Shown: positions 1,573 through 24,760 of the stretch, piece by piece | How the letters are laid out: every line of letters starts with the position of its first letter | Position numbering within the stretch: the stretch's first letter is position 1 | NCBI GenBank assembly: GCA_964507075.1 | Contig: CAZDOL010000002.1 | Coordinates: 47,465-72,224 of the forward strand | Source: an uncultured Gammaproteobacteria bacterium | GTDB taxonomy: Bacteria > Patescibacteriota > Patescibacteriia > UBA2591 > UBA6264 | Reading direction: 5' to 3' | Length of the DNA stretch: 24,760 nt | The notes under the pieces: generated by a model | Seen by the model: only the letters and a program-made list of their open reading frames with translations | What the model was told of the DNA's origin: nothing | Databases searched by the model: none | Program-made: the position numbers and the translations under genes

Positions 1573-1612
1573 GAACATTAGAACATGGGAACATTAGAAC
1601 ATGGGAACATTA
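1573..1612 (+). repeat. Five tandem octamers: GAACATTA GAACATGG GAACATTA GAACATGG GAACATTA (a 16-bp unit x2.5)
   Basis: Read directly from the sequence. The array starts one base after the SBP stop codon and contains the ATG (1585) of the next ORF. A second ATG at 1601 is out of frame. Confidence 0.9.
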
Positions 1613-2265
1613 CATCAAAGAAAAAGAAAATTATTTTTGCTATATTTATATTTGCCCTTTTGTTTTTTGTATTGAATGCTGATGTAGTAAAAGCAGAAGG
1701 TTCATCTGGTCCTTGTAATGAGTTCTGCGGAAGAGAATGTCCTACACTTCAGATTGACGGAGAAGATTTTGACTATGGTTGTCGCAAAATTGGCCTTAAA
1801 AGCGACGGGGCAACTGCTTTATGTAGTTGTTGCCAATGCACTTTTATTGATTTGAGTAAAAACAAAAATGTAGTATGTGATTGCAATTGTCAAGATGAGA
1901 ACAAGATTAAAGATTGTTATGTTGGTGGTTTGTTTGGAGGTTGGCGCACCGCTGTTTGTTCATGTTGCGGAGATTGCACCCTAAATGATTTATTGTACAT
2001 TGGTGTTAGTATAGCTGAGTTAATTTTAAAGTATTTAGGAGTCATTGCCTTGTTTATTTTTATTCTGGGTGGTATAATTTGGATAACCTCTGGGGGAGCT
2101 CAAGAGAAAGTTAAAAAAGGAACAGCCATTATTAAAGGAGCAATTATTGGCATAATAATTGTTATAACTGCCTTTTTGGTAGTTAGGGTAATTATGAGAG
2201 ACATACTGAAGGTGGATTCAGAATACTTGCCTGAATCAAGTAGTCGAGAGTATAAAATTTCTTAG
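1585..2265 (+). CDS. Chimeric T4SS-type (TrbC/VirB2-like) pilin with a Cys-rich N-terminal extracellular module
   Basis: Signal/TM segment KKKKIIFAIFIFALLFFVLNADVVKAEG, then ~90 aa with 16 Cys by hand count. This part includes a duplicated motif (ALCSCCQCTFIDL / AVCSCCGDCTLNDL). The C-terminus has the pilin core LGVIALFIFILGGIIWITSGGAQEKVKKG plus a second TM helix, shared with the four ORFs downstream. Confidence 0.7.
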   Translation: MGTLEHGNITSKKKKIIFAIFIFALLFFVLNADVVKAEGSSGPCNEFCGRECPTLQIDGEDFDYGCRKIGLKSDGATALCSCCQCTFIDLSKNKNVVCDCNCQDENKIKDCYVGGLFGGWRTAVCSCCGDCTLNDLLYIGVSIAELILKYLGVIALFIFILGGIIWITSGGAQEKVKKGTAIIKGAIIGIIIVITAFLVVRVIMRDILKVDSEYLPESSSREYKIS

Positions 2266-2287
2266 TAAATATAGACAAATTTGGTAT

Positions 2288-2629
2288 ATGGATAAAAAAC
2301 ATTTTATTTTTATTATTATCTTAATTGGTGTTTTTGCTATAAGTTATGTTTCCTGTGCTGCTGAAACGGTTAAGCTCCCAAATCCTTTAGAGGGAAAAGA
2401 CGATATTCCCATTTTAGTAGGCAATATTATTAATTATGTTTTGGGAATTCTTGGAGTTTTGGCTTTGGTTATGTTTATTTATGGTGGTTTAACTTGGATG
2501 ACCTCTGAAGGATCGCCAGATAAAATAAAGAAAGGCAAAGACACCCTTATATGGGCAATATTAGGTTTGGCTTTAATTTTTTTCAGTTATTCTCTTTTGG
2601 ATTTTGTTCTCGCAGCATTACAGCAATAG
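2288..2629 (+). CDS. T4SS-type (TrbC/VirB2-like) pilin paralog
   Basis: Signal peptide, then core LGVLALVMFIYGGLTWMTSEGSPDKIKKGKDTLIWAILGLALIFFSY. This is two TM helices joined by a W-M-T-S-x-G-x3-K loop. Confidence 0.75.
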   Translation: MDKKHFIFIIILIGVFAISYVSCAAETVKLPNPLEGKDDIPILVGNIINYVLGILGVLALVMFIYGGLTWMTSEGSPDKIKKGKDTLIWAILGLALIFFSYSLLDFVLAALQQ

Positions 2630-2644
2630 GATGATTTAATGGCT

Positions 2645-2672
2645 GGGGGTTGACCCCCACACCATAACAAGG
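2645..2672. repeat. Palindromic repeat, right-arm copy: GGGGG-TTGA-CCCCC hairpin followed by ACACCATAACAAGG
   Basis: CCCCCACACCATAACAAGG (2654-2672) is the reverse complement of CCTTGTTTGGTGTGGGGGG (2942-2960), apart from one indel. Confidence 0.85.
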
Positions 2673-2681
2673 ATAGAAATT

Positions 2682-2939
2682 ATGTTCTATACTTATATTA
2701 TAAAAAGCATTAAAGATAACGATTGTTATATCGGTTATACATCTGATCTTCAAAAAAGACTTAAAGAACATAATTCTAAATTAAATAAATCAACTAAACA
2801 TAGGACTCCTTTTAAAATTATTTATTACGAAGCTTATGCCTCTAAAGATGACGCTACAAGAAGAGAGCATAACCTTAAATTAAGGGCTAGAGCTTTTAGG
2901 CAATTAAAATTGAGAATTAAAAAAAGCTTAGAGAATTAA
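2682..2939 (+). CDS. Small GIY-YIG nuclease superfamily protein (UPF0213/YhbQ-like, 85 aa)
   Basis: MFYTYIIKS...DCYIGYTSDLQKRLKEHN...YYEAY....A..RE..LK. This gives the GIY/YIG-type strands plus the conserved Arg/Glu pattern of the minimal GIY-YIG domain. Confidence 0.8.
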   Translation: MFYTYIIKSIKDNDCYIGYTSDLQKRLKEHNSKLNKSTKHRTPFKIIYYEAYASKDDATRREHNLKLRARAFRQLKLRIKKSLEN

Positions 2940-2941
2940 AT

Positions 2942-2983
2942 CCTTGTTTGGTGTGGGGGGTTGCCCCCACACTAAACAGCAAT
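2942..2983. repeat. Full copy of the palindromic repeat: CCTTGTTTGGTGTGGGGGG-TTG-CCCCCACACTAAACAGCAAT
   Basis: Self-complementary, with roughly 16-bp arms and mismatches. Its left arm pairs with 2654-2672 and its right arm with 3078-3098. Confidence 0.85.
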
Positions 2984-3077
2984 AATGCTCTTTTGCATTT
3001 TTAAGTTCCCTTAAGGTAAAGTAATTTTTTACCACAAATAGATTAAATCGTATGGCGGCGATTCGCATTGAAAATGC

Positions 3078-3104
3078 ATTGCTGTTATAGTGTGGGGGTT
3101 GACA
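3078..3104. repeat. Palindromic repeat, left-arm copy: ATTGCTGTTATAGTGTGGGGG-TTGAC, truncated before the C5 arm
   Basis: The reverse complement, CCCCCACACTATAACAGCAAT, matches 2964-2983 apart from one indel. Confidence 0.85.
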
Positions 3105-3127
3105 TTTTTTTAAATTGTTTTTATATT
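3099..3127 (+). promoter_or_regulatory. Sigma70-like promoter candidate: TTGACA (3099-3104), 17-bp spacer, TATATT (3122-3127)
   Basis: Near-consensus hexamers at optimal spacing, ~50 bp upstream of the ATG at 3176. The -35 hexamer is contributed by the truncated palindromic repeat. Confidence 0.5.
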
Positions 3128-3175
3128 ATTAAATAATAGGTCGAATAATTAATTATCCTCTCTAATCATAGAGAA

Positions 3176-3565
3176 ATGAAAAATTGCAATAAAAAATTTT
3201 TGTCTTTCTTCATTATAATATCCTTGTCTTTGTTGCTTTTTTTTCCTTTACTGACCAGAACTAATGCTGTTAGTCTTGATGAGGAATTAGAAGGCTTTAG
3301 GAAAGGGGCTACATTAGGGGAAGCTAGTTTAGGAACAGTTATTGGAAAAGTGGTTAAGGGCGCTTTGGGTATTTTTGGTTTAGTTTGTTTGGTTATTTTT
3401 ATTATGGCTGGTTTCCAATGGATGAATTCCGGAGGACATAAAGAAAAAATTGCTGGTGCGCAAAAATCAATGGGCGCAGCTATTCTTGGCATGATTATTA
3501 TAATTGCCGCTTATGCAGCAGTGGATTTTATTACCAAAGCTTTATCTACGGTTACCGCTAAATAA
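3176..3565 (+). CDS. T4SS-type (TrbC/VirB2-like) pilin paralog
   Basis: Signal peptide ending TRTNA, then core FGLVCLVIFIMAGFQWMNSGGHKEKIAGAQKSMGAAILGMIIIIAAYAAVDFI. Confidence 0.75.
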   Translation: MKNCNKKFLSFFIIISLSLLLFFPLLTRTNAVSLDEELEGFRKGATLGEASLGTVIGKVVKGALGIFGLVCLVIFIMAGFQWMNSGGHKEKIAGAQKSMGAAILGMIIIIAAYAAVDFITKALSTVTAK

Positions 3566-3615
3566 CCAAAGTAGTATTCTTTCTCGATTAAAAAAGAGGA
3601 TAAAAGAGGTTTAAA

Positions 3616-3987
3616 ATGAAAAAATATTTACCTTTAATTGGCGTAGTATTAATGTTAGCTTTATTGGTTACTCCTGCTTTAGCACAAAATCTTGATAATG
3701 GTTTTATGATTGAATTTCAAGGTAATGCTGGGATTGGAGACAACACTATAGCTGAAGTTGTTGGTCAAGTAGTCAAAGCAGTTCTAAGTATTTTGGGTTT
3801 AGTAGCTTTAGTTATCTTTATAATTGCTGGTTTCCAATGGATGACATCTGGTGGTAATAAAGAAAAAATTCAGAGTGCGCAAAAATTAATGGGCGCAGCA
3901 GTAATTGGTTTGGTTATTATAATTATCGCCTATGCCGCTGCTTCTTTTATTATCAGTGCGTTAACTGATGTAACTGGGACGGCATAA
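3616..3987 (+). CDS. T4SS-type (TrbC/VirB2-like) pilin paralog, a close tandem duplicate of 3176-3565
   Basis: Signal peptide ending PALAQ, then core LGLVALVIFIIAGFQWMTSGGNKEKIQSAQKLMGAAVIGLVIIIIAYAAASFI. An AAAAGAGG motif occurs twice upstream and is SD-like. Confidence 0.75.
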   Translation: MKKYLPLIGVVLMLALLVTPALAQNLDNGFMIEFQGNAGIGDNTIAEVVGQVVKAVLSILGLVALVIFIIAGFQWMTSGGNKEKIQSAQKLMGAAVIGLVIIIIAYAAASFIISALTDVTGTA

Positions 3988-4023
3988 TTTATTCTTTAGA
4001 AATACGGTCAATTATTCAATTCT

Positions 4024-4458
4024 ATGGCTAGAAATTTTTCTTATCCAGAAAAAATATTTTCGGGTATTCTGTTAATTATTGTTCTAACTTTGATTTTTTG
4101 TAGCAGTCCAGTTTTAGCAGATAGTCCTCGAGACCAACTTAATGTTGTAGCTGGTCAAGTTGGCATCGCAACTACCAATTCTTTGGGTTATACATTTGGA
4201 CTTGTTTTTCAGAAAATATTGGGAGTAATGGGTTTGATTTTGTTGGTTTTATTTGTTATTGGTGGTATAACGTGGATGACTTCTGAGGGCAATGCAGAAA
4301 AACTAAAGAAAGCTAGGGGTTTATTGATTCATGCCATAATTGGTTTAATTATTATCTTAGTTTCTTATGCTTTGATTAATTTTGTGACCGAGAAACTGCA
4401 GGAAGTTGTTGATGCAAAAGAAATTCCTGCAACAGAAGTTCCTGCAACAGGTGATTAA
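4024..4458 (+). CDS. T4SS-type (TrbC/VirB2-like) pilin paralog with a short repeat tail
   Basis: Core MGLILLVLFVIGGITWMTSEGNAEKLKKARGLLIHAIIGLIIILVSYALINFV. The C-terminal tail EIPAT-EVPAT is encoded by two perfect TTCCTGCAACAG 12-mers (4424-4435 and 4439-4450). Confidence 0.75.
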   Translation: MARNFSYPEKIFSGILLIIVLTLIFCSSPVLADSPRDQLNVVAGQVGIATTNSLGYTFGLVFQKILGVMGLILLVLFVIGGITWMTSEGNAEKLKKARGLLIHAIIGLIIILVSYALINFVTEKLQEVVDAKEIPATEVPATGD

Positions 4459-4553: not shown

Positions 4554-5294
4554 TCAAAGAAGACGATATTTTAATCTAATTATTTCTTTTAGATACCCTA
4601 ATGCTGTTTTAATAATCTTAACTTTTGTTTTTCTTTCATTTTTATCTTCCCAATTAATTGGTATTTCTTTAATTTTGAGATTATGATGTCGAGCCAATAC
4701 TAAGAGTTCAGTGTCAAAGAAAAAACCATTGTTTTCAATTTTTGGGATAATTTTTTGAACAGCTGATTTGGAAAGCGCTTTAAATCCGCAATGGGTATCA
4801 GTTAATTTAATGTTAAAAAATATTTTAAGAATAAAATTATAGAATATAGAATACACAGAGCGCATTAGAGATCGTTTGCAGTGGCTTTGTTTCTGATATC
4901 GCGAGCCAATAGTTAAATCATATTTTTCTTTAATTATCCCTTTAATTAAGGGAAGTGTAAATTTTAGTTCAGTAGCCAAATCAGCATCCATAAAAATATT
5001 AACATCAACTAAATAATCCAGCCATGCTTTTTTAATAGCCAACCCCTTTTTATCAGGTTGTGATAAATGGAAGTATTCTAAATTAGAATATTTTTGTTTT
5101 TTTTGTTGGATTATTTTTATGGTTTTATCTGTTGAGCCGTTGTCAGCCACGATTATTTTCCATTTATATTCTTGAAGATTATTTTTACAAAAAATAAAAA
5201 GCTGATTAATTTTTTGCTCAATAATTTTTTCTTCATTATATGTTGGGATAACCACCAAAACGCTTTTCTTTTTTAGATTATGTTTAGTCTCCAT
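4554..5294 (-). CDS. Family-2 glycosyltransferase (polyprenol-phosphate sugar synthase / Dpm1-like)
   Basis: VVIPTYNEE...ADNGSTDKT...MDADLAT (DxD) plus a C-terminal amphipathic tail. This is a typical GT2 GT-A fold signature. Confidence 0.8.
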   Translation of the reverse strand: METKHNLKKKSVLVVIPTYNEEKIIEQKINQLFIFCKNNLQEYKWKIIVADNGSTDKTIKIIQQKKQKYSNLEYFHLSQPDKKGLAIKKAWLDYLVDVNIFMDADLATELKFTLPLIKGIIKEKYDLTIGSRYQKQSHCKRSLMRSVYSIFYNFILKIFFNIKLTDTHCGFKALSKSAVQKIIPKIENNGFFFDTELLVLARHHNLKIKEIPINWEDKNERKTKVKIIKTALGYLKEIIRLKYRLL

Positions 5295-5301
5295 ATTGTT
5301 T

Positions 5302-8699: not shown

Positions 8700-8711
8700 T
8701 TTTAAAAAATC

Positions 8712-8743
8712 CCAATTACCCAAGTACCCGATTACCCAACTCC
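8712..8743. repeat. Tandem octamers CCAATTAC CCAAGTAC CCGATTAC CCAACTCC
   Basis: The 8-bp period was read directly from the sequence. The array sits in the divergent intergenic region between the GT-C-like gene and yebC. Confidence 0.85.
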
Positions 8744-10172: not shown

Positions 10173-10203
10173 CCGATTACCCAATCTCTAATTACCCAAG
10201 CAT
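10173..10203. repeat. Octamer-family repeats CCGATTAC CCAATCTC TAATTAC CCAAGCAT
   Basis: Shares CCGATTACCCAA with 8728-8739. It abuts the stop codon of the minus-strand gene at 10203. Confidence 0.75.
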
Positions 10204-11432
10204 TAGCGTTTGGGATATATATATCCTACGATTTGCCATCCGCCTTGAGAAGTATTTTGCCAGGCGGTTGTCCTTCTTAATTTTCGGGTTACTGGTTTTT
10301 GGGTCCAACTTGGATTTGATGGACCATTCATTTCCGAGAAATAAACATAATTATCGTCAAATTTTTCTATATAAGCAACATGTCCATACCAATTATTGCA
10401 TCTCAAAACTACTATTGACCCCTCATCTCCTTTATTTAGAGTGAGACCCGTTTTAAATCCATCGTTTCTAGCGTTTTGTAGCCATGTTCTGGCATTTCCC
10501 CAATTACTTGGTCCTACACATTGACCTAATTCAGTTGCCCACTTATAGGCCACCCAATCAGTGCATTGACCTGGGTTCGTGTAGTAGCGTTTACATGATA
10601 CACAACAACGTTTATATCTCCAGTCTGTATAACTGCAATTACTTTTTTCCGTGGGAATAAAGGAAGAAATAGAGGAAGTTTTTGCTATGATTGGTTTTGG
10701 CACAGGAAGCGGTGAGCCATCAGGGATAATTAAAATTTCCCCTACTTGAAGATTGTCTGGGTTAATGAGATTGTTGAATGCAATTATTTCTCCAGTATCT
10801 ATTTTGTATTTTTCGGCAATCTGAGAAAGTTTTTCGTTTTTCTTTATTTTATGCAAAATTCCATCTACTGGCAGAATTGTTAACTCGTCTCCTGGCTGAA
10901 TATTGGCGCGCCAATAAGTTAAATCATTTGCCCAGAGTACCGTCCAAACACTTAAACCAAATTTTTCAGCAATATCCCAAGGATTGTCATTGGGTTCAAC
11001 CACATAAGTTTCGATTTCTGTCCTAGTGGGTATAATATTTGGACTAATTTCACTATTGACAGCAACAAGAGCAGTATTATTTAAAGTGAGAGCTAATTCT
11101 GGAGAGGGATATTCTTCTCTTAAGAGAGTAGCAATCTGGAAATCATAATTTTCCTTTTCAATTTTCGGGTTTTGCGCGGAGGAAATTCTATCTAAATGAA
11201 TATCTTTGCTGGTACTTTCGGAAAGAATAACGTTACTGCTTTGATTTATTATCTGTGCATAAGAAAAAAATATAAAAAATAAAACAGCCAGAATAACAGG
11301 CAGTTGTTTTTTGGGCTGTAAGTTTTTATAAATTCTAGACAAAAGGTGTCCAAAATAGATGGCACGAAGTATGCCTCTTTTTAAAGCCTTAATACTATAT
11401 CTGACAATTTGTCTTAATAGTTTATCTTGCAT
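10203..11432 (-). CDS. Membrane-anchored peptidoglycan hydrolase: 2x LysM plus a C-terminal CHAP domain
   Basis: TM anchor LPVILAVLFFIFFSYAQII. LysM repeats YVVEPNDNPWDIAEKFGLSV...L.PGDEL and HKIKKNEKLSQIAEKYKID...LQVGEILIIP. CHAP motifs QCTDWVAYKW and YGHVAYIE. The track start at 11438 is TTG, and the first ATG is 11432. Confidence 0.8.
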   Translation of the reverse strand: MQDKLLRQIVRYSIKALKRGILRAIYFGHLLSRIYKNLQPKKQLPVILAVLFFIFFSYAQIINQSSNVILSESTSKDIHLDRISSAQNPKIEKENYDFQIATLLREEYPSPELALTLNNTALVAVNSEISPNIIPTRTEIETYVVEPNDNPWDIAEKFGLSVWTVLWANDLTYWRANIQPGDELTILPVDGILHKIKKNEKLSQIAEKYKIDTGEIIAFNNLINPDNLQVGEILIIPDGSPLPVPKPIIAKTSSISSFIPTEKSNCSYTDWRYKRCCVSCKRYYTNPGQCTDWVAYKWATELGQCVGPSNWGNARTWLQNARNDGFKTGLTLNKGDEGSIVVLRCNNWYGHVAYIEKFDDNYVYFSEMNGPSNPSWTQKPVTRKLRRTTAWQNTSQGGWQIVGYIYPKR

Positions 11433-11492
11433 AAACAATTTTTTTTTTGTATAATAATGATTATTATGCCTAAAATTGTGAAAAAATCAAGT

Positions 11493-14031: not shown

Positions 14032-14919
14032 ATGAATGTAAAAGAAATTAAAAAGATTTGTAAAAAAAATGATTTTGTTCCTTTGCGTCGTCGGGGACAA
14101 AATTTTTTAATCAACCCTAAAGTAATTGGACGAATAGTAGATGTGGCCGAAATAAACGGAGATGATGTTATCCTGGAAATAGGCCCAGGTTTAGGTGCTT
14201 TAACCAAACCGATTGCTGATAAATGCAAGAAAGTAATTGCAGTTGAAATTGATAGAAAATTAGTTGAAATTTTAAAAGAACGCTTATCAAATTATATTAA
14301 TATAGAAATAATTAAGGGTAGTATTTTAGATGGAACTTCAAATTTAGATTTGAGAAAGAAGAAATATAAAGTAATCGCTAATCTCCCTTTTAATATCACT
14401 GGCCGAGTTTTAAGAATTTTATTAGAACAGAGAAATAAGCCAGAGTTAATCGTAATAGTAGTTCAAAAAGAAGTGGCGCAGAGAATAGTTGCTCAACCTC
14501 CCCATATGTCTCTTTTATCTTTGGCAATTCAATTTTATAGTCAAGTAAACGCTGTTTTCAGTATTAATAAAAGCAATTTTTGGCCTCAACCGAGAGTAGA
14601 TTCAACAATATTAAAAATAAGGCCAAATAAATCCAAAATTAAACAAGAAATTGAGGATAAATTTTTTCAACTCATCAACGCTGGTTTTTCTTCTAAGAGA
14701 AAATATTTACTTAACAATTTGGTTAAAAGTGTTATAATGACTAATCATTGGAACATTGGAACATTGGAACATTGGAACACAAAAGGAAAAAAAGAATTTT
14801 TTTTAAATATTTTTAGAGAGATTGGTTTGAACGAGAAAGTTAGAGCGCAGGAACTATCACTTGAACAATGGATAGAGATTGCATATAACATTGGAACATT
14901 GGAACATAGAAAAAGTTAA
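14032..14919 (+). CDS. rsmA: 16S rRNA (adenine1518/1519-N6)-dimethyltransferase RsmA/KsgA, with octamer-repeat-encoded insertions
   Basis: RRRGQNFL, the SAM-binding EIGPGLGALT, ANLPFNIT, and FxxKRK in the C-terminal domain. The two stretches HWNIGTLEHWN and YNIGTLEH are encoded by GAACATTG repeats. Confidence 0.9.
   Translation: MNVKEIKKICKKNDFVPLRRRGQNFLINPKVIGRIVDVAEINGDDVILEIGPGLGALTKPIADKCKKVIAVEIDRKLVEILKERLSNYINIEIIKGSILDGTSNLDLRKKKYKVIANLPFNITGRVLRILLEQRNKPELIVIVVQKEVAQRIVAQPPHMSLLSLAIQFYSQVNAVFSINKSNFWPQPRVDSTILKIRPNKSKIKQEIEDKFFQLINAGFSSKRKYLLNNLVKSVIMTNHWNIGTLEHWNTKGKKEFFLNIFREIGLNEKVRAQELSLEQWIEIAYNIGTLEHRKS
14743..14782 (+). repeat. Tandem octamers AATCATTG GAACATTG GAACATTG GAACATTG GAACACAA inside the rsmA CDS
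   Basis: Three perfect units plus two degenerate ones, read directly. Translated in frame as NHWNIGTLEHWNT. Confidence 0.9.
14886..14909 (+). repeat. Tandem octamers TAACATTG GAACATTG GAACATAG at the 3' end of rsmA
   Basis: Read directly. These units encode the terminal NIGTLEH. Confidence 0.85.
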
Positions 14920-14943: not shown

Positions 14944-15639
14944 ATGAGAAATAAATCTAAAGTTTTTCAAATATTTTGCCTTTCAGTATTGGGGTTATTT
15001 GTTTTAGCCTTAGGTTTTTTTCAGATCAGGGGAGCGATTTATGGTCCATTTAAAGGTTTTAGAAAATCTAATACAGAGAAAGAATCAGCACTAACACAAG
15101 AAGAGATTTTATTTATTTTATCAGAGCAAGCCAAACAAGAAGACACAGATAAGGACGGCCTTTCTGATTATGACGAAGCTTATGTTTATAAAACATCTCC
15201 ATATATCCAAGATTCAGATAGCGACGCCTTTTCTGACCAAGAAGAAATAGAAGCGGGAAGTGATCCTTTGAATTCTAATTCAACGCCTTATCATCAGGCA
15301 GAGGATAATGAAGACAATCAATTAATAGATAAATCTTGGCCCGAGCCCCTTGAGGATGAACAATTTTCTTCAGAAGATATTAGGGATTTTTTAATTCATG
15401 CAGGAATAGACAAAGAAATTGTGGACAATATTGATGACAATGATTTAAAAAAGTTATATAATGAAACTAAAGAAGAAACAGGTATTGACCCGCAGGATTT
15501 AGGATTGTCATCTTCTCCTGAGGTTGATATTCTTTTATTAAGGCAAGCTCTAATAGATGAGGGGGTTGATGCTTTAATATTGGGAGAAATAGATGACGAG
15601 ACGTTAAAAGCAATGTTTTTGGAAAATTTAGGAAATTAA
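14944..15639 (+). CDS. N-terminally anchored, highly acidic protein with thrombospondin-type-3-like Ca-binding repeats and a duplicated C-terminal helical motif
   Basis: TM segment VFQIFCLSVLGLFVLALGFFQI. DTDKDGLSDYDE and DSDSDAFSDQEE match the DxDxDGxxDxxE pattern. Internal duplication: IRDFLIHAGIDKEIVDNIDDNDLKKLY / LRQALIDEGVDALILGEIDDETLKAMF. Confidence 0.6.
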   Translation: MRNKSKVFQIFCLSVLGLFVLALGFFQIRGAIYGPFKGFRKSNTEKESALTQEEILFILSEQAKQEDTDKDGLSDYDEAYVYKTSPYIQDSDSDAFSDQEEIEAGSDPLNSNSTPYHQAEDNEDNQLIDKSWPEPLEDEQFSSEDIRDFLIHAGIDKEIVDNIDDNDLKKLYNETKEETGIDPQDLGLSSSPEVDILLLRQALIDEGVDALILGEIDDETLKAMFLENLGN

Positions 15640-15662
15640 GATAATTTATTCATATAAATTAT

Positions 15663-18600
15663 ATGAGATTTGGGAAATCAGGTAATATTTTTATCAAAGG
15701 AGCGATTTTATTAACAATGTTTATGTTAGTAATTTCCTCTTTTTTATTTTTACCACAAAAAACTCAAGCTCAATTTATTGTTGCTGATCCCATCAAGGGT
15801 GTTTGGGATGCGATGAAATGGGCATGGGATAAGGGTGGTGCAGTTGCTTATCGAAATGCTTTAAATTTCTTTTTACAACAAGCCGCCAAACAATCAGGTG
15901 AATGGTTGGCTACTGGAGATGCAGGCAAGAAACCAGCATTTTTAACTGATCCTGATTTTTTTAGTAAAGCAGGTGATCAAATGTTGGGAGAGTTTGTTGA
16001 TTCTGTGGCAGATAATTTTTTAGGACAAAGTCTTTGTGACACTTTAGATCCCACTGTTAAATTTAACATATTGGCTAATTTAGACCCAGATTATCAAAAA
16101 ATGAAATGGGCAGAAGAACCAAAATGTTCTTTCAGTCAAATTAAAAAGAATCTTGAAGAAGCAGACTGGGAAAATATGTTTGAGTTTTCTAGTGAGGTAA
16201 AAGAGGGGAAAGTTGCTAAGCAAAAATCAACTATTAGCTCTCTTATTCAAGGTGATTCAATCCTAACAGAAGAGAGGAAGTATACATTGGACGGCAAACT
16301 AGATATTTGTCCTGGGAGCGGTCTTGACATCTTACAATGTCCTGCTGGAGCTGTTAATTGGGCGTTAGGAAACGTTTTTTATTTTTATCAGGAAGACTAT
16401 CAAGGAGTTGGGTCATATTTGCATGAATATACTAATGAGTTTGAGGATATTTTAGAGGGACTGAAAAAAGATGCTCCAACCCTTGGACTTGTTCGTGAAT
16501 CAGGTGAATCTGAAGATGAGAAAGATGCTGAGGCTGTGGCGATAATGAAAGGAGAGGCCTCGGCAAGGCTCCAGGCATTAGAAAAACAATTAGATCCAGA
16601 AACAGGCGCAGAAATTTGGATTCCGGGAGAGGGTGAAGATATATTTAAATTAGCAAGTTTAAATAAGTGGGCCCCAGAATGTTTAGCAAAGGATAACAAG
16701 GTTTTATTAGATGACCCGCAATGTCGTGGTTTATGTGATGTGAAAATTTGGCTTCGCAATGATTCTAATTCTGTAAAGAAATGTACTAGCGCATTAGGTA
16801 AACCAACTGGAAGTGTGTGTACATCAAATTCTGACTGTGAATCAGGCAGTACTTGCGAAGAATGGTATGGAATGTGTCAAGGGGGAAGTCATAATGGAGA
16901 GTGGTGTAAGAATACTTCTCAGTGTTTATTGCCATTACCAGGCGTTTGTGTAGATGCTGGACCGATTTGTTATAATCGCATTAAGAGAGTGAATAAATAT
17001 ACCAAACAATTAATAGAGTGGGCCACTACCCTACAGGACATGATAACTCAAGTTCAAAATAACTGGGAAGCACAGAAAGGTATACCTGATTTAGATCCTT
17101 TGGAAGACGCACAGAATATGTTTAATCCAGAGAGTAGCGCCATTGGTATACAAATGAGCTTAGAGAGTAAATTATTTGAAAAACAAGCAGCTGCTATTGA
17201 AAAAAGTAAAATTTTTAGGAGTATTCAGGGTTCAATGAACGCAGTAACTTCAAAAGTTTCAGGCATTATTAAACTACCATCTACTTTTGTGAGTGAAAAA
17301 GCGCGGGAATCTGTAAAATCTGGGAGCGCTGGACCTTTAACTACCACAGGCGTGGCTTTAGCTGATGCTATTGGAGTTTTTGCCAACACTTTTATATCTC
17401 AGTATATGAAGATTCTTTTCACCAAAGGACTCAATCCAGGGGCAGATAGCAGCAGGGTCAATGTTCCTGATGATCCCGAGGATCCGCCAGATCCGGACAC
17501 AACTTCTATTTTAAGCGAAATAAAAGTAATCCCTATTAATCAAGCCAGTAATGAAATGAGTATTTATGATGAATTTGCAGTTTGTCCTACTGGTACCGAC
17601 CAAAAATATACTTCTCAATTTAATTGTTTATTAGATAATAAATTAGCTCGAGCTGTAGAAGAAAGAATGACCATTCAAGAAGCTATAGAGAATAGTCTTC
17701 TTAATCCTGAAGAACGTTTGGGTATAGCTGGTGATATGCGTAGTTTATTATCAAAGAGTCATATTCAAAAACTACGACTAATTGGTATTCTGCCCTTGGG
17801 CATGCAAATCGCCAGCAAAATAGTTATGGAAGGGCAATATACTAACGGAATGACTTTGGCTGAGGTGGTAGACGGATTTGATCAAAGGGGCGCAAATGGT
17901 ATTTGTGGTGATCTTGACTCAGGAGAAAGTGAATTTTGTAATCTGGTAGACCCTGATTGGGTTTTGAAAGCCCCCAGTTATTTATGTGAAATAACTGGTT
18001 ATTCAGCGATTCCCCTAAGAGATAGTTCTTTTCGCCAAGAATCCTGTTTAGATTTAAAAACATGTATTAACGAAACTGATGGCAATCAGTGTGATACATG
18101 GTCTTATTGCACCCGCGCAAAGAATGTTTGGCGTTTTGGTGGAGATGAATGTGATGCTCAGTATAATACTTGTGCTTCTTATGCCCAAAAAGATAGTGGA
18201 GAAATTTTCTCTTATCTTTCTAATACTTTAGATTTTAATAATTGTAGCGCCAGTAATGTTGGTTGCAAATGGTATTGTTCAAAATGGGACCAAATATATT
18301 CGGGCATAGGTGGTAATTGGCCTTGTTCGTCTCCTGGTTGGCGCAAATATACTTGTTATCTCGGAGGCTTGTGTGATGACCCTTCTTGTCTTTGCGCTTG
18401 CGACGGCGATAATGGTTGTCCTGATGGATTAGGGAGTTGTGATGTTGTAGAAGGAGGAATGTCTTGTTCCTTGGATAGTCCCGAATTAAGGAATGTAGCC
18501 TTTTTTAGTAATCATATTGGGGGATGCAAAGAAGTTGACGAGGGTTGTTCTAAATATATTAGAATTAAACCAGGAACAGGAGTTAATTTTTTGCCTAATG

Positions 18601-21600
18601 GAAGTTTTGAGTTGCCTTCTCAAGATGACGGCACTCCTTTTGGTTGGTATGTTAATAATTCAGCGATTATTCAACAAATTGCGCTTTCCTCGGGTGCGCA
18701 ACATAGCAGTAATGTGGTACAGATTCAGACCGGTAATTGCGAATTAAGTCAGACGGTTCATAATGTCCCTTTACAAGGAGATTTTACTTTCTCGGGATAT
18801 TATAAGAAAAATAGCATTTTATCTGGTAATTATAATTTAAAATTACAAATTTGTTATGACGATAATTGCGATGATTTGGACGAGATTGAGAAAATTATTG
18901 AGCTTGATAATAATAATTGGAAACCTGTTTCTGTGTCCTTATCTTCTAATATAGAGAAATCTATTGATCATGTTAAGATTTTCGCTTTTAATTCTTCTGA
19001 TTTTAGTGGTGATATTTATATTGACGCATTACAACTTAGAAACGAAAGTGGGAATTCGGTTTATAGAGAATATGGCTCTAATGGGATTACTTATTTTAAA
19101 AGTGCTCCCGGACAGATGAATTGTTATGATGGAGATGAGAGTAATAATAATACTGATTGTGATAATTTTATTCAAAAATGTGATTCACAAAATGTTGGTT
19201 GCGAATCTTATATTTCTATGAATGATAATATGTCAGATATTCCAGCCATAGTTGATAATTTAGATTTATGTCTTTCAGGTTGTGTTGGCTATGAAACTTT
19301 TGAAGAAATTCCGACCAATTTTGTTAGTAGTAATCGTTGGGTAGATTTAATTCCTCAAACAGCAAAAAAATGTTCTGCTCCAGGTTGTGAGGAATTTACG
19401 AATTTAGATGCCTTGTCTCAAGGAGGTGAAGCGAGAGAATACTATACTTATCTCCGCCAATGCGTTAAGACTAATGCTCAAGGATTGGCAATCGTGGATT
19501 CTCTGGGAAACGAAATTTCGCCAGCCACTGCCGATACTTGCCGATATTATTATACTTGGGTTGGAGAAGAAACAAACGGATATCAATTAAAGAAATATTA
19601 TTTAGAAGCTAATCTATCTTTAGGGGGGCCAGTTCAAGTTAGCGCAACCCCGAATTCTGATTGGGGTGATTGCGAAAACGAGGATGACGCAGACGAAAAT
19701 CCTCATTGCAGGCAATTTTACGACGCTATGGGCAATATTTATTATCGTCTTTATAAAAATACTGTTACTTGCTCGCAAGACTGTAGTCCTTATCGTAGAG
19801 AAGTGGACAACACAACTCATATGGCTATAAAAACAGAAGGAGAAATTTGCGGGTTCCAAGACGTTGGTTGCAGGGAGTATAAAGGGTCTGCTTATGGAAA
19901 TATGAAAAATTTATTCTTGGACAGATTCCTCTCCAGCACTGATCCATGGGAAAATGTTGAAATCAGCGGCGAATCAATCAATCACTTGGGCCAATCTATA
20001 AAAGCCGACAATAATTTGGCTCAAAGACCAGTAGATGATTTCATTAGTTCTAGGGGAAAGGTTTATTCTCTTTCATTGTGGGTTAAAGGAAGTGGTAATT
20101 ATATTGCATCTTTCGGCAATGATTTATATTTTATTAACGAAGGTTCTCATGATGTTTCAGTTGTTTCTAATGATTGGCAAGAGATAAGATTTGGTTCTGT
20201 TTATTTTAACAGAGAGCCAGAAAACGATGAAAAATTAATCATCCAAGGACCGAATCAATTTTATTTAGATAATATTACCCTTAATGAGGTTCAGGATAAT
20301 ATTTATTTAACTCAAAATTCTTGGAATACACCGGCGGTTTGTGATATTGATTCCGAAGGAAATATATTTTCTGGTTATATGCTTGGTTGTCAAGCTTATT
20401 GGGATAGGAGCAATAACGCGCATTATCTTAAATCATTTAGCCGTCTTTGCCCCACAAAAGCAGTTGGGTGCGAAGCTATAATTGACACAAAAAATTCAAT
20501 GTCTGCTTTTAGCGAAGAATTTAATGGAGGGCTTCCTCAGGGCGACGAAATTGTTATTCCCGCCGACAGCTTGATTTACAGGGTTTATGACACAGACAAG
20601 AGTTGTGCCTCTGAAAACAAAGGGTGTCAAAGATTTGGCTTACCAGAATTTGATTCTAGTCAAGAAATAATTGATTTCACAGATGTATATTTATTAAATA
20701 ATCCAGATTTATATAAACTTCAATCCATTCTATGCGACATAGAAGGAGAAGGGTGTCAAGAATATGATGGACGAGTTTATTTTAAAGAACCAGGTGACAA
20801 TATTTGTGAGTATCGTGAAAATGTTTTTATTAATGGAGAGAATAAAAATGGTTGGTTTAAAGGTGAAACTGATCAACCTTGTTATATAGAAAATGGTTTT
20901 GCCTATCAACCATATGGCACTGTTTATGGTATTCGTACTAATACAGATCTTTTATATGAGGGAATTGCTGGGGTTTGTCCTGAAAATCAGAATGGATGTA
21001 GTCGGTTTATTAATCCAACTGAACAAAATTTAGTTTTGAATAGTGGGTTTGAGTTAGATGAGAATGGAGATGATGTTCCTGATGATTGGGACCCATATGA
21101 AGATCCAGAAATATCATTTACCCTAGAAACGAATGATTGTTTGAGCGGAAATTGTTGGCGAATGAATCATATTGGCGCTGCAACTTCAGCTGGTTCGCAA
21201 TATATAGAAATACAACCAGGATATACTTATGAGCTTTCTGCATGGATGAAAGCAAGTGATACTTCTACTGGTACCAGCAGAATTTACCTTGCTTATGTTG
21301 ATGAATTTAATCCTGGGACTTGGTTAGATATTGCTCACTCTGAACAATTAGGTTCTACGGACGGAAAATGGATAAAACACACTGTTACATTAAAAGCTCC
21401 ATATAATGCCATGTACGCTAGAATTTTAGCTCCTTATGTTGACGGTTTCATGGATGTGAGGATAGATAATGTTTCCTTAATAGAACAATTTTCTCCGCAA
21501 GGCAGTTATTATTATTTAAACAATGAAAATATAGATAAGACTTCTTGTAATGCAATGGCAGGTTTAAAAGAAGGTTGTATCTTATTTAATGATACTTCAA

Positions 21601-24065
21601 TTTCAGGAAATTTATTTTATGATTCAACCTCTACTTATGTTTTAAGTCAATCTCAGGGTGATATTTCAGTTCCAGCGTCCAGTGTTAGTTTAAATTCTGG
21701 GGGCGAAGGAGACAGTAATGTAGTTCTTAAAGTGAGGCGAGATAGAACTTGTGGTGAATGGTTGCAATGTTCGGGTTATCGTTCGGTCTGGGATAGTTCT
21801 ATTGATGAATATCGTTCGGTCTGTGATTCTTGGGTGCGTTGCGATCAGTTGGTTGGCTCTGGCAAACAAGCTCAATGCGGACATGTTGTTTATGATCCCA
21901 ACCCTAATCCTTTAACAGAACGAGAATATAAAAACAGAAATGTTTCTTGGTCAGGTATGGACTATTTGGGTTATTCTATACCAGATATGTATCCCATAGA
22001 AAGATTGTTCCCGAGCGAAGATACGCAAAATTCAGGATTATATACCTTAACTTATTTTGAAGATATAGATGATGATGGCATAGAAGACAATATAGGAGTG
22101 GATGGACTTGGCTTAAACATTGAGAAAACCACGCGTATTTACCCAGAAAAGAATTCTCCTTTCATGGCCAGTGCTAGTTCCTATTATAACAAGGTTAATT
22201 TATGTGATAGTGGAACAGGTGATTATCCTTATGATAATATTGATATTGACGGTAATATTGTCTCTCTCTATCCTGATTGTCAGGGTTCTTATCAGAAGGT
22301 TGAATATGGTGATCAATATAGTGGACTAACTAAATATTATAATTTTGATACAGGGGGCGTTAATTTAAGGAAAGCTTGTAAATATAGTGGGAAAAATTGT
22401 GAAAATGGTTTTCCTGACTGTGAAGCGGGAGATGAATGTGTTAAACCAAACAAGATAACTCAAGTTATTGGTTTGAGGGGTTTTTGTTTAGAGCCAGATG
22501 AGTCAAGGCCTGAAGATGCTAATACTTGTATTACTTGGTGGCCAGGGGCCAGCGCTGGCGATGTAGATGTTTATAATTTACATTATTCAGCAGGATATGT
22601 GGCGACTGGTAGCAGGAAATGGTATTGTTTAAATCAAGAGGACTATGTTTTTTCGGATGTTTGCACAGAAGATGGTGATCCGGGATGTAAATATCATTGT
22701 TGGGAGCACGACAGTTGTTCTTCTATTAAGATTTATGACGTAAATGATGATGGTCGCTTGATTCATAAAGATGAGATAGATTATGTCCAAACAGAATTAG
22801 GGGCTTCTGACGGGACAAGTTGTTCAATGGATCATATAATATATCTTAGAGAGGATCATGTTGGAAATTATGAAGAGGGAAATTGGTATGGTTGTACTGT
22901 GTCTGATGGTAGTTATGCTGGTAGTTGTGGTTATGATGCAGCCGCGTCTGACCCTCTCACTTGTAGATGTACCCAAAATGGTGATGGAACACAAAATGAT
23001 GGCTGCTCCTGCACAAAAATACAAGTTACTTTTGACTCCAATGGTTTTTTAGAAAAAGTAAAGCTAAGAGCGCATGGGAACAGTGCTGCCAATGATCGAC
23101 AATCATGGGATGGTGATTTGGAGGTTCATCTTAAGAGTGGCTGTCAATTCCTTGTTAATGCGATCCCAAGTGACAATTTTGGATTATCCATTACTTATAC
23201 TGATCGCTTTTGGGAATTCAGTGATTATTATTCTATAATAGATCCACCAAATACGCCTGGGACTGGCGGCCAAGATTGTACTCCTTATGGGGTGGCCAAT
23301 ACTTCAGACGCAACTAGATTGACCATAACAGGAGGTTTGGGAGAGGATAATTGTGATGGGGGCACAGAAGATGGAGGTAAAGCTAATATTGTCTATAATT
23401 TAAATGGCTTACAACAACTGTTTGTCAAGGTTGATGAAACACAAGAATTTGACGAAAATGCAATGAGCTATGGTTCAGTAATTGCTGGCAATTGGGCTCC
23501 CTGGAATATAACAGAGATTGCAGCAAGTTCGGCAGATGCGCCAACGATAACTTCTATTAATGGAGTTGAAAACGCTATTAGTATTGGGGAAGAGGATTTT
23601 GGAGTAGGTCCAGAAACATCTCCTTATGTTGCAAATCTTAAATTTTATGCTTCAGCAGATACAAATCATATGCCTATTAGGGAGATTAGCATTGATTGGA
23701 ATAATGATACGCCAATTAATTTTTATAATGTAATTAGCAAAAATCATCGTCCAGAATGTGATGGTACAGAATTTGGCGCAACACCTGAAGCTTGTGTAGA
23801 TAAATATTTTTCATTCAACCATACTTATACTTGCGAAGGAGAAGGAAGTGATGGATGGAATGCACATGGATGTGTTAATATGTGTTGTTTTAAACCTAAA
23901 GCTTATATCAAAGATAATTGGGGCTGGTGTGCTGGTAATCCAGGGGTATATGCTGGATGGGATTCTGACAACAATGCATATAATTGTAAAGATTGGGCTG
24001 ACATACCCGTAAGCGAAGCAGGAATTCCTTATAATGGAGTAATTAAAGTAAACACAAATAACTAG
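15663..24065 (+). CDS. Giant (2800 aa) secreted or N-terminally anchored Cys-rich surface protein with three jelly-roll/CBM-like modules and a PKD-like C-terminal region
   Basis: An uninterrupted 8.4-kb ORF beginning 23 nt after the previous gene. Signal peptide ...FLFLPQKTQAQF. About 112 Cys by hand count, nearly all after aa ~120. Recurrent C-x(4-7)-G-C-x-x-[YF] motif. N(F/L)(L/V)xNG(S/G)FE-type modules at ~18585-19050 and ~21027-21488, plus a related one at ~19908-20295. No LPXTG or C-terminal anchor. Confidence 0.85.
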   Translation: MRFGKSGNIFIKGAILLTMFMLVISSFLFLPQKTQAQFIVADPIKGVWDAMKWAWDKGGAVAYRNALNFFLQQAAKQSGEWLATGDAGKKPAFLTDPDFFSKAGDQMLGEFVDSVADNFLGQSLCDTLDPTVKFNILANLDPDYQKMKWAEEPKCSFSQIKKNLEEADWENMFEFSSEVKEGKVAKQKSTISSLIQGDSILTEERKYTLDGKLDICPGSGLDILQCPAGAVNWALGNVFYFYQEDYQGVGSYLHEYTNEFEDILEGLKKDAPTLGLVRESGESEDEKDAEAVAIMKGEASARLQALEKQLDPETGAEIWIPGEGEDIFKLASLNKWAPECLAKDNKVLLDDPQCRGLCDVKIWLRNDSNSVKKCTSALGKPTGSVCTSNSDCESGSTCEEWYGMCQGGSHNGEWCKNTSQCLLPLPGVCVDAGPICYNRIKRVNKYTKQLIEWATTLQDMITQVQNNWEAQKGIPDLDPLEDAQNMFNPESSAIGIQMSLESKLFEKQAAAIEKSKIFRSIQGSMNAVTSKVSGIIKLPSTFVSEKARESVKSGSAGPLTTTGVALADAIGVFANTFISQYMKILFTKGLNPGADSSRVNVPDDPEDPPDPDTTSILSEIKVIPINQASNEMSIYDEFAVCPTGTDQKYTSQFNCLLDNKLARAVEERMTIQEAIENSLLNPEERLGIAGDMRSLLSKSHIQKLRLIGILPLGMQIASKIVMEGQYTNGMTLAEVVDGFDQRGANGICGDLDSGESEFCNLVDPDWVLKAPSYLCEITGYSAIPLRDSSFRQESCLDLKTCINETDGNQCDTWSYCTRAKNVWRFGGDECDAQYNTCASYAQKDSGEIFSYLSNTLDFNNCSASNVGCKWYCSKWDQIYSGIGGNWPCSSPGWRKYTCYLGGLCDDPSCLCACDGDNGCPDGLGSCDVVEGGMSCSLDSPELRNVAFFSNHIGGCKEVDEGCSKYIRIKPGTGVNFLPNGSFELPSQDDGTPFGWYVNNSAIIQQIALSSGAQHSSNVVQIQTGNCELSQTVHNVPLQGDFTFSGYYKKNSILSGNYNLKLQICYDDNCDDLDEIEKIIELDNNNWKPVSVSLSSNIEKSIDHVKIFAFNSSDFSGDIYIDALQLRNESGNSVYREYGSNGITYFKSAPGQMNCYDGDESNNNTDCDNFIQKCDSQNVGCESYISMNDNMSDIPAIVDNLDLCLSGCVGYETFEEIPTNFVSSNRWVDLIPQTAKKCSAPGCEEFTNLDALSQGGEAREYYTYLRQCVKTNAQGLAIVDSLGNEISPATADTCRYYYTWVGEETNGYQLKKYYLEANLSLGGPVQVSATPNSDWGDCENEDDADENPHCRQFYDAMGNIYYRLYKNTVTCSQDCSPYRREVDNTTHMAIKTEGEICGFQDVGCREYKGSAYGNMKNLFLDRFLSSTDPWENVEISGESINHLGQSIKADNNLAQRPVDDFISSRGKVYSLSLWVKGSGNYIASFGNDLYFINEGSHDVSVVSNDWQEIRFGSVYFNREPENDEKLIIQGPNQFYLDNITLNEVQDNIYLTQNSWNTPAVCDIDSEGNIFSGYMLGCQAYWDRSNNAHYLKSFSRLCPTKAVGCEAIIDTKNSMSAFSEEFNGGLPQGDEIVIPADSLIYRVYDTDKSCASENKGCQRFGLPEFDSSQEIIDFTDVYLLNNPDLYKLQSILCDIEGEGCQEYDGRVYFKEPGDNICEYRENVFINGENKNGWFKGETDQPCYIENGFAYQPYGTVYGIRTNTDLLYEGIAGVCPENQNGCSRFINPTEQNLVLNSGFELDENGDDVPDDWDPYEDPEISFTLETNDCLSGNCWRMNHIGAATSAGSQYIEIQPGYTYELSAWMKASDTSTGTSRIYLAYVDEFNPGTWLDIAHSEQLGSTDGKWIKHTVTLKAPYNAMYARILAPYVDGFMDVRIDNVSLIEQFSPQGSYYYLNNENIDKTSCNAMAGLKEGCILFNDTSISGNLFYDSTSTYVLSQSQGDISVPASSVSLNSGGEGDSNVVLKVRRDRTCGEWLQCSGYRSVWDSSIDEYRSVCDSWVRCDQLVGSGKQAQCGHVVYDPNPNPLTEREYKNRNVSWSGMDYLGYSIPDMYPIERLFPSEDTQNSGLYTLTYFEDIDDDGIEDNIGVDGLGLNIEKTTRIYPEKNSPFMASASSYYNKVNLCDSGTGDYPYDNIDIDGNIVSLYPDCQGSYQKVEYGDQYSGLTKYYNFDTGGVNLRKACKYSGKNCENGFPDCEAGDECVKPNKITQVIGLRGFCLEPDESRPEDANTCITWWPGASAGDVDVYNLHYSAGYVATGSRKWYCLNQEDYVFSDVCTEDGDPGCKYHCWEHDSCSSIKIYDVNDDGRLIHKDEIDYVQTELGASDGTSCSMDHIIYLREDHVGNYEEGNWYGCTVSDGSYAGSCGYDAAASDPLTCRCTQNGDGTQNDGCSCTKIQVTFDSNGFLEKVKLRAHGNSAANDRQSWDGDLEVHLKSGCQFLVNAIPSDNFGLSITYTDRFWEFSDYYSIIDPPNTPGTGGQDCTPYGVANTSDATRLTITGGLGEDNCDGGTEDGGKANIVYNLNGLQQLFVKVDETQEFDENAMSYGSVIAGNWAPWNITEIAASSADAPTITSINGVENAISIGEEDFGVGPETSPYVANLKFYASADTNHMPIREISIDWNNDTPINFYNVISKNHRPECDGTEFGATPEACVDKYFSFNHTYTCEGEGSDGWNAHGCVNMCCFKPKAYIKDNWGWCAGNPGVYAGWDSDNNAYNCKDWADIPVSEAGIPYNGVIKVNTNN

Positions 24066-24068
24066 TTT

Positions 24069-24103
24069 GGCTCTATAGAGCCCCAAAACCAGGTCCGACC
24101 TGG
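24069..24103 (+). other. Two adjacent GC-rich hairpins just after the giant gene's stop, with no T-run
   Basis: GGCTCTATAGAGCC (24069-24082, a perfect palindrome) and CCAGGT-CCG-ACCTGG (24089-24103). Confidence 0.5.
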
Positions 24104-24132
24104 ACAAGGATAAATAGTAATTAAATATAATA

Positions 24133-24760
24133 GTGAAGGATTTATTTAAGAAAATTAAACTAAGATACCATATAAAGTTGCTACGCTCCCAAGGGCCAAG
24201 CAGGAAATTTATTTTTCTTCCTCTTTTGGTTTTGGTGTTAATAGGAGTATTTTTAATTGCTGAACCTGCTTTAGCTGACGTTGGATCTTTTGTGGCTTCT
24301 GTTTTTGGTTGGTTAATAATGCAGATAGTTAGTATTTTGGGTAAAATTTTGACTTGGATTATAGGATTATTAATAGAAATAGCGCAATATAATAGTTTTA
24401 TCACTGCTCCAGCTGTTTCTAAGGGATGGATAATTGTTAGAGACGTTTGTAATATGTTTTTTATTGCCGCTCTTTTGCTTATTGCTTTTGGTACAGTTTT
24501 AAAAATAGAAAAATATTCTTATAAAAGAACTTTGGGCGGACTTTTAGTGGCTGCAGTTTTGATTAATTTTTCTAAATTCATCTGCGGTTTTTTTATTGAT
24601 ATCGCTCAGATATTGATGCTTACTTTTGTTAATGCATTTAAAGATGCTGGATCTGGCAATTTTTTGCAAATGTTAGGCATGGATAAATGGCTTAATTTTT
24701 CTGGAGCGCAATCAGCAGCAGGTGGTAGCGCTCTTACGGGAGCTCTTTTCGCTCTAATTT
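24133..24760 (+). CDS. Partial (3'-truncated by the window) polytopic membrane protein with a signal peptide; possibly VirB6/TrbL-like
   Basis: Hand translation of the frame opening after the TAA at 24118-24120 gives the following: (GTG 24133 or TTG 24178)...RKFIFLPLLVLVLIGVFLIAEPALADVGSFVASVFGWLIMQIVSILGKILTWIIGLLIEIAQYNSFITAPAVSKGWIIVRDVCNMFFIAALLLIAFGTVLK...LLVAAVLINFSKFICGFFIDIAQILMLTF... It remains open to the window end and has several TM helices. It is absent from the ORF track, probably because no stop codon is present. The family assignment is tentative. Confidence 0.6.
   Translation, partial: MKDLFKKIKLRYHIKLLRSQGPSRKFIFLPLLVLVLIGVFLIAEPALADVGSFVASVFGWLIMQIVSILGKILTWIIGLLIEIAQYNSFITAPAVSKGWIIVRDVCNMFFIAALLLIAFGTVLKIEKYSYKRTLGGLLVAAVLINFSKFICGFFIDIAQILMLTFVNAFKDAGSGNFLQMLGMDKWLNFSGAQSAAGGSALTGALFALI

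Follow-up and report, generated by a model that had tools for sequence, protein, structure and literature searches.

The type IV secretion systems (T4SSs) of Patescibacteria are the closest described counterparts of the locus considered here. In Southlakia epibionticum the T4SS is essential for epibiotic growth, has a Gram-positive-like composition with an essential pilin array, and lacks both relaxase and coupling protein (Wang et al., 2023; PMC10633639). A survey of the phylum reported VirB4, TrsD, VirB3/PrgI, VirB6 and VirB2 arrays, with ksgA common near virB4, while adhesins such as PrgB were not detected in its dataset (Quinonero-Coronel et al., 2025; PMC12102498). The parts given in a FEMS review are VirB1-, VirB3-, VirB4-, VirB6-, VirB8- and VirD4-like proteins and pilins, with no VirB5 (PMC12857230). 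The present analysis concerns a stretch of 24,760 nt from an uncultured, ultrasmall bacterium of the Patescibacteria (contig CAZDOL010000002.1 of assembly GCA_964507075.1, positions 47,465 to 72,224), hereafter the window, and in particular the three genes at its 3' end. These encode a predicted calcium-binding membrane protein (the anchor), a very large Cys-rich protein (the giant) and a protein with several membrane-spanning helices (the third protein), the gene for which runs beyond the window. The three had been described as co-directional and closely spaced, and the coordinates of the open reading frames (ORFs) bear this out, with gaps of 23 and 67 nt (Table 1).

It is very probable that the three genes head a T4SS locus of the Patescibacteria kind and that the third encodes a VirB6-like protein. 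That the anchor and the giant work together with the T4SS is put forward with less assurance, being somewhat favoured by the order of the genes. The explanation preferred as a whole, namely that a chromosomal T4SS locus begins with these three genes and has the giant as its host-surface element, is considered reasonably likely. In this proposal the giant would be the part of the apparatus that meets the host surface, probably by binding glycans. The calcium-binding anchor, docking of the giant's helical N-terminal domain on the VirB6 platform, or both, would keep the giant on the cell, and the pilus or channel would thereby be placed next to the host.

An exact look-up of the giant returned 15 contigs. 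Three of them, designated L001, L003 and L006, agree with the window at 100% identity across positions 14944–24760, and L001 was used to extend the locus. On this contig the third gene encodes a protein of 955 amino acids (aa) and is followed by genes for a 426-aa protein with no family match, PrgI/VirB3, a TrsD-like fragment, a VirB4 ATPase, a 190-aa protein and a further membrane protein. PrgI/VirB3 (144 aa) scored 30.3 bits against a Pfam cut-off of 27, and the 216-aa product of L001:23269-23919 matched the N-terminal part of VirB4 (E 2e-10) and TrsD (E 5e-8, under the curated cut-off). The VirB4 ATPase (L001:23924-25807, 627 aa) was identified by the NCBIfam model conju_CD1110 with 332.3 bits against a cut-off of 325, and by P-loop_TraG with an E value of 6e-27; a VirB4-like ATPase just downstream of the window had been forecast from the window alone. 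All three genes lie within 5.6 kb past the third gene. The division of VirB4 into a separate TrsD-like N-terminal protein and an ATPase is as reported for Patescibacteria.

Judged by its sequence, the locus is a Patescibacteria-type T4SS, which is like the Gram-positive (mating-pair formation type FATA, MPF-FATA) systems but has VirB2-like pilins. It shares with the published Patescibacteria systems a VirB4, a TrsD-like fragment, PrgI/VirB3, an extended VirB6-like protein, a VirB2-like array and a cell-wall hydrolase, as well as a chromosomal position with no relaxase or type IV coupling protein (T4CP) nearby and with ksgA/rsmA close to virB4. Pfam matches confirmed that five VirB2-like pilins and a CHAP hydrolase are encoded within the same 25 kb, and the same pilin array was found near the locus in L008. 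The CHAP gene occupies the same position in L008, and 14 of 47 loci have it in their upstream flank. The original prediction had treated these genes as dispersed parts of one uncharacterised apparatus. The term uncharacterised has to be dropped, as the machine has already been described as the Patescibacteria T4SS (PMC10633639; PMC12102498). The idea of a single apparatus stands for the third gene, which belongs to a T4SS cluster, while for the anchor and the giant it is argued from gene order and domain content. It is these two proteins that set the locus apart, as a giant Cys-rich protein with carbohydrate-binding modules (CBMs) and a TSP3-type anchor are missing from the published inventories. 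Neither is mentioned in PMC10633639, PMC12102498 (supplements included) or PMC12857230, and no literature was found on a giant or Cys-rich T4SS-linked protein from candidate phyla radiation (CPR) bacteria.

A system of this kind could also be a DNA-transferring integrative and conjugative element, in which the giant would act as a mating-pair adhesin. The VirB4 is indeed nearest to conjugative Gram-positive families, and L007 has a T4CP-like gene at a distance of 9 kb from the giant. However, no relaxase, coupling protein (T4CP) or integrase was found in the window or in the 27 kb of L001, the locus occupies a conserved chromosomal site amid housekeeping genes in dozens of species, and relaxases have been reported from only 103 Patescibacteria genomes (PMC12102498), which together make a conjugative element highly improbable. 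As neither a relaxase nor a coupling protein is present nearby, which agrees with published work, the machine probably serves epibiotic host interaction and not conjugation.

A hydrophobic segment ending at an AxA-type site (...EPALA/DVG) opens the third protein. Approximately seven hydrophobic helices, the N-terminal one and about six more, fall within residues 26–340, and the remaining tail of ~600 aa contains 20% Lys+Arg and 18% Asp+Glu. The protein carries a precomputed 'weak' TrbL_3 flag. Its syntenic orthologue in L009, which is 30% identical, matched TrbL (PF04610) at residues 122–285 with an E value of 8.2e-7 and 29.4 bits against a threshold of 25.9, and six of 20 relatives matched TrbL. 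The matched region is the best-conserved stretch of the family alignment and is conserved in the protein of the window. A weak local match between the family and TrwI of R388 was obtained with hhalign on an 'LSP...W' segment (P 0.02), which is in the same region as the TrbL match, and a search of PDB sequences with the VirB6-like profile returned nothing meaningful. The earlier impression of a signal peptide followed by a multi-spanning, VirB6/TrbL-like protein is thus upheld through these relatives. By transitive homology and gene context, the third protein is predicted to be a distant member of the VirB6/TrbL family. It resembles the extended VirB6 proteins (PMC12857230) in having at least five hydrophobic helices and a large hydrophilic C-terminal domain, but differs from them in being so divergent that it falls below Pfam TrbL detection and in its ~600-aa charged tail without a known domain.

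The anchor has a single hydrophobic segment at residues 10–28. This is preceded by Arg and Lys residues, from which it follows that the acidic remainder of the protein should face outward. Pfam TSP3_bac (PF18884) was matched in two stretches with 27.9 bits against a cut-off of 25, and the motif residues of these stretches (DxDxDGxSDYxE and DSDSDxxxDxEEI) are unchanged in four orthologues. A helical motif in the C-terminal part is duplicated (41% identity over 29 aa, E 5e-6). The protein is therefore predicted to be a type-II (signal-anchor) membrane protein consisting of a transmembrane helix, two TSP3-type repeats, an acidic linker and the duplicated helical motif, in agreement with the single-pass anchor first proposed. 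A search of PDB sequences with its profile gave nothing meaningful.

The giant likewise proved to be as first described, namely a 2800-aa secreted Cys-rich protein with a signal-like N-terminus. Its hydrophobic segment at residues 13–31 is followed by 'TQAQ', and all homologues have a signal-like segment at the N-terminus. As this is a Sec signal peptide, the giant would be exported by Sec and not by the T4SS. It contains 112 Cys residues (4%), equivalent to ~56 potential disulfides, of which ~45 residues are invariant in 14 homologues down to 27% identity; the other conserved residues are mainly Gly and aromatics. A C-x4-7-G-C-x-x-[YF] motif occurs about 12 times between the beta-rich modules (for example CDSQNVGCESY, CSAPGCEEF and CDIEGEGCQEY) and may represent a disulfide-closed connector hairpin. 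The C-terminus (...GVIKVNTNN) has neither an LPXTG motif nor a transmembrane segment.

With regard to domains, the only Pfam match of the giant is its third module, which matched CBM_4_9 (PF02018) with an E value of 5.4e-7 and 30.5 bits against a cut-off of 25.9. CBM_4_9 was detected in 13 of 14 homologues, with a best E value of 4e-16. Two more CBM-like modules were recognised in an AlphaFold2 (AF2) model of residues 613–1800. The mean predicted local distance difference test (pLDDT) score of this model is 53 overall, and it is confident only in the CBM-like blocks, at residues ~982–1127 and ~1412–1542, and in a small helical block at residues 657–767; a further beta-rich block appears at residues 1262–1372. 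Foldseek matched module 1 to CBM16, CBM22, CBM61 and a porphyran CBM (TM-score 0.63–0.76, E ~1e-7) and module 2 to CBM-type folds, and every significant match of this region came from CBM sandwiches. Alignments of the N-terminal domain, which has a lineage-specific insert at residues ~200–460, show an 'ATGGxGQKPLF' motif and a Cys pair (C125 and C155) to be conserved. The AF2 model of this domain (residues 1–612) is helical with a mean pLDDT of 55, the conserved core being below 50, and Foldseek found nothing for it in the PDB (best E 1.3).

From these features the giant is predicted to be a Sec-exported, disulfide-stabilised, multi-lectin surface protein that would need a partner to stay on the cell, and its calcium-binding single-pass neighbour would be the obvious candidate for such a partner. 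CBM_4_9 modules usually accompany glycoside hydrolases, and the giant might accordingly have been taken for a secreted polysaccharide-degrading enzyme or a toxin whose CBMs target the substrate. This is very unlikely, as no catalytic family was found in it among Pfam, NCBIfam or PDB sequences, a search of the last giving nothing meaningful of any kind, and the conserved residues are mostly Cys, Gly and aromatics. A surface element of the T4SS finds a parallel in PrgB of pCF10, a Gram-positive conjugation adhesin of a type presumed to act in cell–cell contact, in that the giant is also a large surface protein heading an MPF-FATA-like T4SS operon. However, searches against Pfam and other collections gave no match to an adhesin family or to PrgB-like domains, and the giant differs from PrgB further in having no LPXTG motif, in being disulfide-rich, in its CBM modules and in its separate calcium-binding membrane partner.

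The giant was found to be widespread. A word-based search returned 24 homologues of 2539–3700 aa, all from Patescibacteria-type metagenome bins, and when a profile of the N-terminal domain was searched exhaustively, 2856 clusters at 50% identity were obtained, 684 of them at E≤1e-30. In this search the domain was always N-terminal and complete proteins measured 2400–3800 aa. Relatives are present in at least 346 species genomes, and a scan in which one genome per species was used retained 80 loci, the titles of which name Falkowbacteria, Uhrbacteria, Buchananbacteria, Komeilibacteria, Parcubacteria or 'Patescibacteria group'. Hidden Markov models built from three loci were then searched against all ORFs of 89 loci. 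Of 71 informative loci, 70 have the anchor gene immediately before the giant gene. The giant is in turn followed by a VirB6-like gene in 49 of 58 loci, with 16 of these within 200 nt and a median gap of ~700 nt. The order RsmA-anchor-giant-VirB6-p426-PrgI-TrsD-VirB4-p190 recurs down to ~25% giant identity, so that the synteny of the three genes in relatives, on which the first proposal depended, is conserved across dozens of species. The anchor–giant pair is widely conserved and tightly coupled, and appears to be new.

The gap between the giant and the VirB6-like gene is often occupied. In 21 loci (L017, L019, L020, L022, L023 and 16 others) it is filled by a small conserved membrane protein of 166–336 aa with the motif 'LRxAW...INxHVFL...LFCxLGEEW', which is absent from the lineage of the window. 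In three others (L024:23664, L075:10138 and L078:26228) an M23-peptidase-like protein ('GDHVHxGxH', HxH), possibly a VirB1-type wall hydrolase, is encoded there. Two apparently large gaps are due to split giant genes.

Several observations weigh against the explanation preferred here. Neither the window fragment of the third protein nor its full 955 aa matched any Pfam or NCBIfam model at E≤1, PF04610 and PF19590 included, both AF2 models of the giant are of low confidence (pLDDT 55 and 53), and most of that protein is without an assigned fold. In Southlakia, a member of the Saccharibacteria, the essential T4SS cluster (SEML1_0006-0019) encodes products of 1113 and 998 aa but none of 2800 aa. 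The gene rsmA nearly always precedes the pair, and 38 of 47 loci have leuS in their upstream flank; as these genes are also conserved and the whole block is syntenic, adjacency is weak proof of a shared function. Furthermore, no VirB6-like gene is present within 2.7–10 kb after the giant in nine of the 58 loci, and in L007 the anchor–giant pair is alone among housekeeping genes.

The conserved upstream neighbours and the loci without a VirB6-like gene speak for the pair being an independent envelope module, such as a calcium-stabilised adhesin or an S-layer-like coat, that neighbours the T4SS only through the conserved gene order of the clade. The pair is also the tightest unit of the locus, and the giant uses Sec and not the T4SS. 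Against such a module, conservation is seen to fall with distance: yebC and ruvC are kept in three of 47 loci, leuS is adjacent in 12 of 47 and CHAP is present in 14 of 47, whereas the VirB6-like gene follows even very divergent giants in the proportion given above. In addition, the gaps often hold T4SS-style accessory genes (the M23 peptidase and the small membrane protein), and in the window they are short with no terminator-like site between the genes. An independent module is therefore regarded as a possible but clearly less probable explanation than an anchor–giant pair that serves the T4SS.

Among the functions that the giant could have in a T4SS, that of the missing VirB5 equivalent was considered. 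The N-terminal domain would form an oligomer on the VirB6 platform, the protein would sit at the tip of a VirB2-like pilus and the CBMs would point toward the host. The giant gene is located directly before the VirB6-like gene, as virB5 is before virB6, its product has a signal peptide, an extracytoplasmic location and a helical N-terminal domain, and VirB5 is not among the Patescibacteria T4SS components of PMC12857230. The mature N-terminus 'QFIVADP' (in relatives 'QIPVTV' and 'GMPVADV') resembles 'QGIPVFD' of TrwJ, and 'TGGxG' (within 'ATGGxGQ') is found at an offset similar to that of 'TGGRGLG' in R388 TrwJ. VirB5 proteins can diverge past detection by sequence or fold, the F-plasmid VirB5 (TraH) having been recognised only by its predicted VirB6 interface (bioRxiv 10.64898/2026.07.31.741991). 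The likeness to the VirB5–VirB6 stalk of R388 (TrwJ/TrwI; PMC9259494) extends to a secreted protein whose gene immediately precedes a VirB6-like one, with a helical region at the N-terminus and a short mature N-terminus of the IPVxD kind, and to VirB2-type pilins. However, the giant exceeds VirB5 in size by more than 10 times, neither profiles nor a Foldseek search with the low-confidence AF2 model gave it a significant similarity to VirB5 and, in contrast to the Gram-negative stalk, it belongs to a monoderm host without an outer-membrane core complex.

Pfam VirB5 (PF07996) was not matched by the giant or its homologues, and a HMMER profile of 26 VirB5 proteins found nothing in any of the 89 loci. 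When signal peptides were removed, hhalign gave P values of 0.2–0.27, and column-shuffled controls reached the score in 11 of 60 and seven of 60 runs. The AF2 model of the N-terminal domain (pLDDT 55) is too poor for a test of the fold, and Foldseek finds nothing with it. With no profile match and with shuffled controls performing equally, homology of the giant to VirB5 is not supported. A first hhalign result (86 collinear columns, E 0.023) was found to be driven by signal peptides and was rejected, and a match to DUF4141 (E 0.04–0.1) was set aside as uninformative, as it spans only the signal peptide and 'AQFIV.D'. That the giant is the VirB5 equivalent is consequently thought unlikely, and the same low likelihood is attached to a purely functional analogue of the VirB5 tip or stalk subunit, aided by the calcium-binding anchor. 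If true, a VirB5-type giant would read the glycans of the host surface and so set the host range for much of the CPR (2856 sequence clusters).

Table 1. Features of the window. Coordinates are positions in the 24,760-nt stretch.
Feature	Position	Strand	Remarks
Five VirB2-like pilin genes	1585..4458	+	Pfam T4SS_pilin, E 2e-6 to 1e-12, all above cut-off
LysM-LysM-CHAP hydrolase	10203..11438	-	Candidate VirB1 analogue, Pfam
rsmA/ksgA	14032..14919	+	Conserved upstream neighbour
Anchor gene	14944..15639	+	231 aa
Giant gene	15663..24065	+	2800 aa
Giant, putative signal peptide	15663..15770	+	Residues 1-36, ...LPQKTQA/QFIVADP, read from sequence
Giant, N-terminal domain	15771..17498	+	Residues 37-612, mostly helical, family-defining
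Giant, CBM-like module 1	18585..19043	+	~Residues 975-1127, beta-sandwich, AF2 pLDDT 70-90
Giant, CBM-like module 2	19896..20288	+	~Residues 1412-1542, all-beta, AF2 pLDDT 65-90
Giant, CBM_4_9 module 3	21027..21401	+	Residues 1789-1913, Pfam PF02018
Spacer between giant and third gene	24066..24132	+	67 nt, short hairpins at 24069-24082 and 24089-24103
Third gene, 5' part	24133..24760	+	GTG start, 209 of 955 codons, open to window end

The G+C content of the window is low (~0.27–0.39). Both hairpins that had been noted between the giant and the third gene exist, but their stability is not above chance and there is no T-tract. The spacer folds with -17 kcal/mol (z -1.35), and 27 of 200 shuffled sequences were equally stable. 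A role as terminator or attenuator was rejected on these grounds, and no terminator-like site was found in the 67 nt.

Upstream of the anchor, the 3' end of rsmA contains two perfect tandem arrays of the 8-nt unit AACATTGG at 14746–14779 and 14887–14907, the pattern having four matches in the window with none expected by chance. The second array has 2.6 copies in the window and 3.6 in L001, L002 and L004. This 8-nt indel shifts the rsmA stop from 14919 to a position 8 nt before the ATG of the anchor gene (295 vs. 303 aa), and could be a polymorphism caused by strand slippage a short way upstream of the operon. The region's best sigma-70-like match (14711–14738, TTAACA-16-TG-TATAAT, 11/12) is also inside rsmA, directly before the first array and ~200 nt upstream of the anchor gene.

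Among the other genes of the locus, the first pilin paralogue (1585–2265, 226 aa) has a Cys-rich N-terminal extension of ~110 aa with CxxC/CC motifs before its T4SS_pilin domain. The 190-aa bitopic protein encoded by L001:25834-26406 has conserved counterparts after VirB4 in many loci. In size and topology it would suit a VirB8-like subunit, for which the sole hint from family searches is DUF3828 (E 0.3). Some strains and species have a gene of the 23S_rRNA_IVP family between those for the 426/530-aa protein and PrgI (L002:22652-23023 and L008:22489-22860), which is not present in L001, the contig that matches the window. The pilin array and yebC are separated in the window by minus-strand genes (4554–8723) for a glycosyltransferase, a membrane protein of the sulfatase family and a polytopic protein of 560 aa. 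This block is an insertion relative to L008, where the array and yebC are immediate neighbours.

With regard to the records themselves, many third-party annotation entries of metagenome-assembled genomes with a Patescibacteria-type locus (among L010–L089) are titled 'uncultured Gammaproteobacteria', with which the gene content disagrees. Some homologues are labelled Nanoarchaeota, Omnitrophica or Spirochaeota, and the records concerned include P0014, P0027, P0028 and P0050. It is likely that the records with odd titles are mis-titled or mis-binned.

The T4SS of Patescibacteria is essential for epibiotic growth in the sole genetically tractable species, and published surveys of these systems detected no adhesin. 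A pair of genes that heads the T4SS locus in hundreds of uncultured species is a concrete candidate for the host-contact element. The anchor–giant pair may be how Patescibacteria grip their hosts, and the variable CBM modules of the giant could help to predict the hosts of lineages that have never been cultured.

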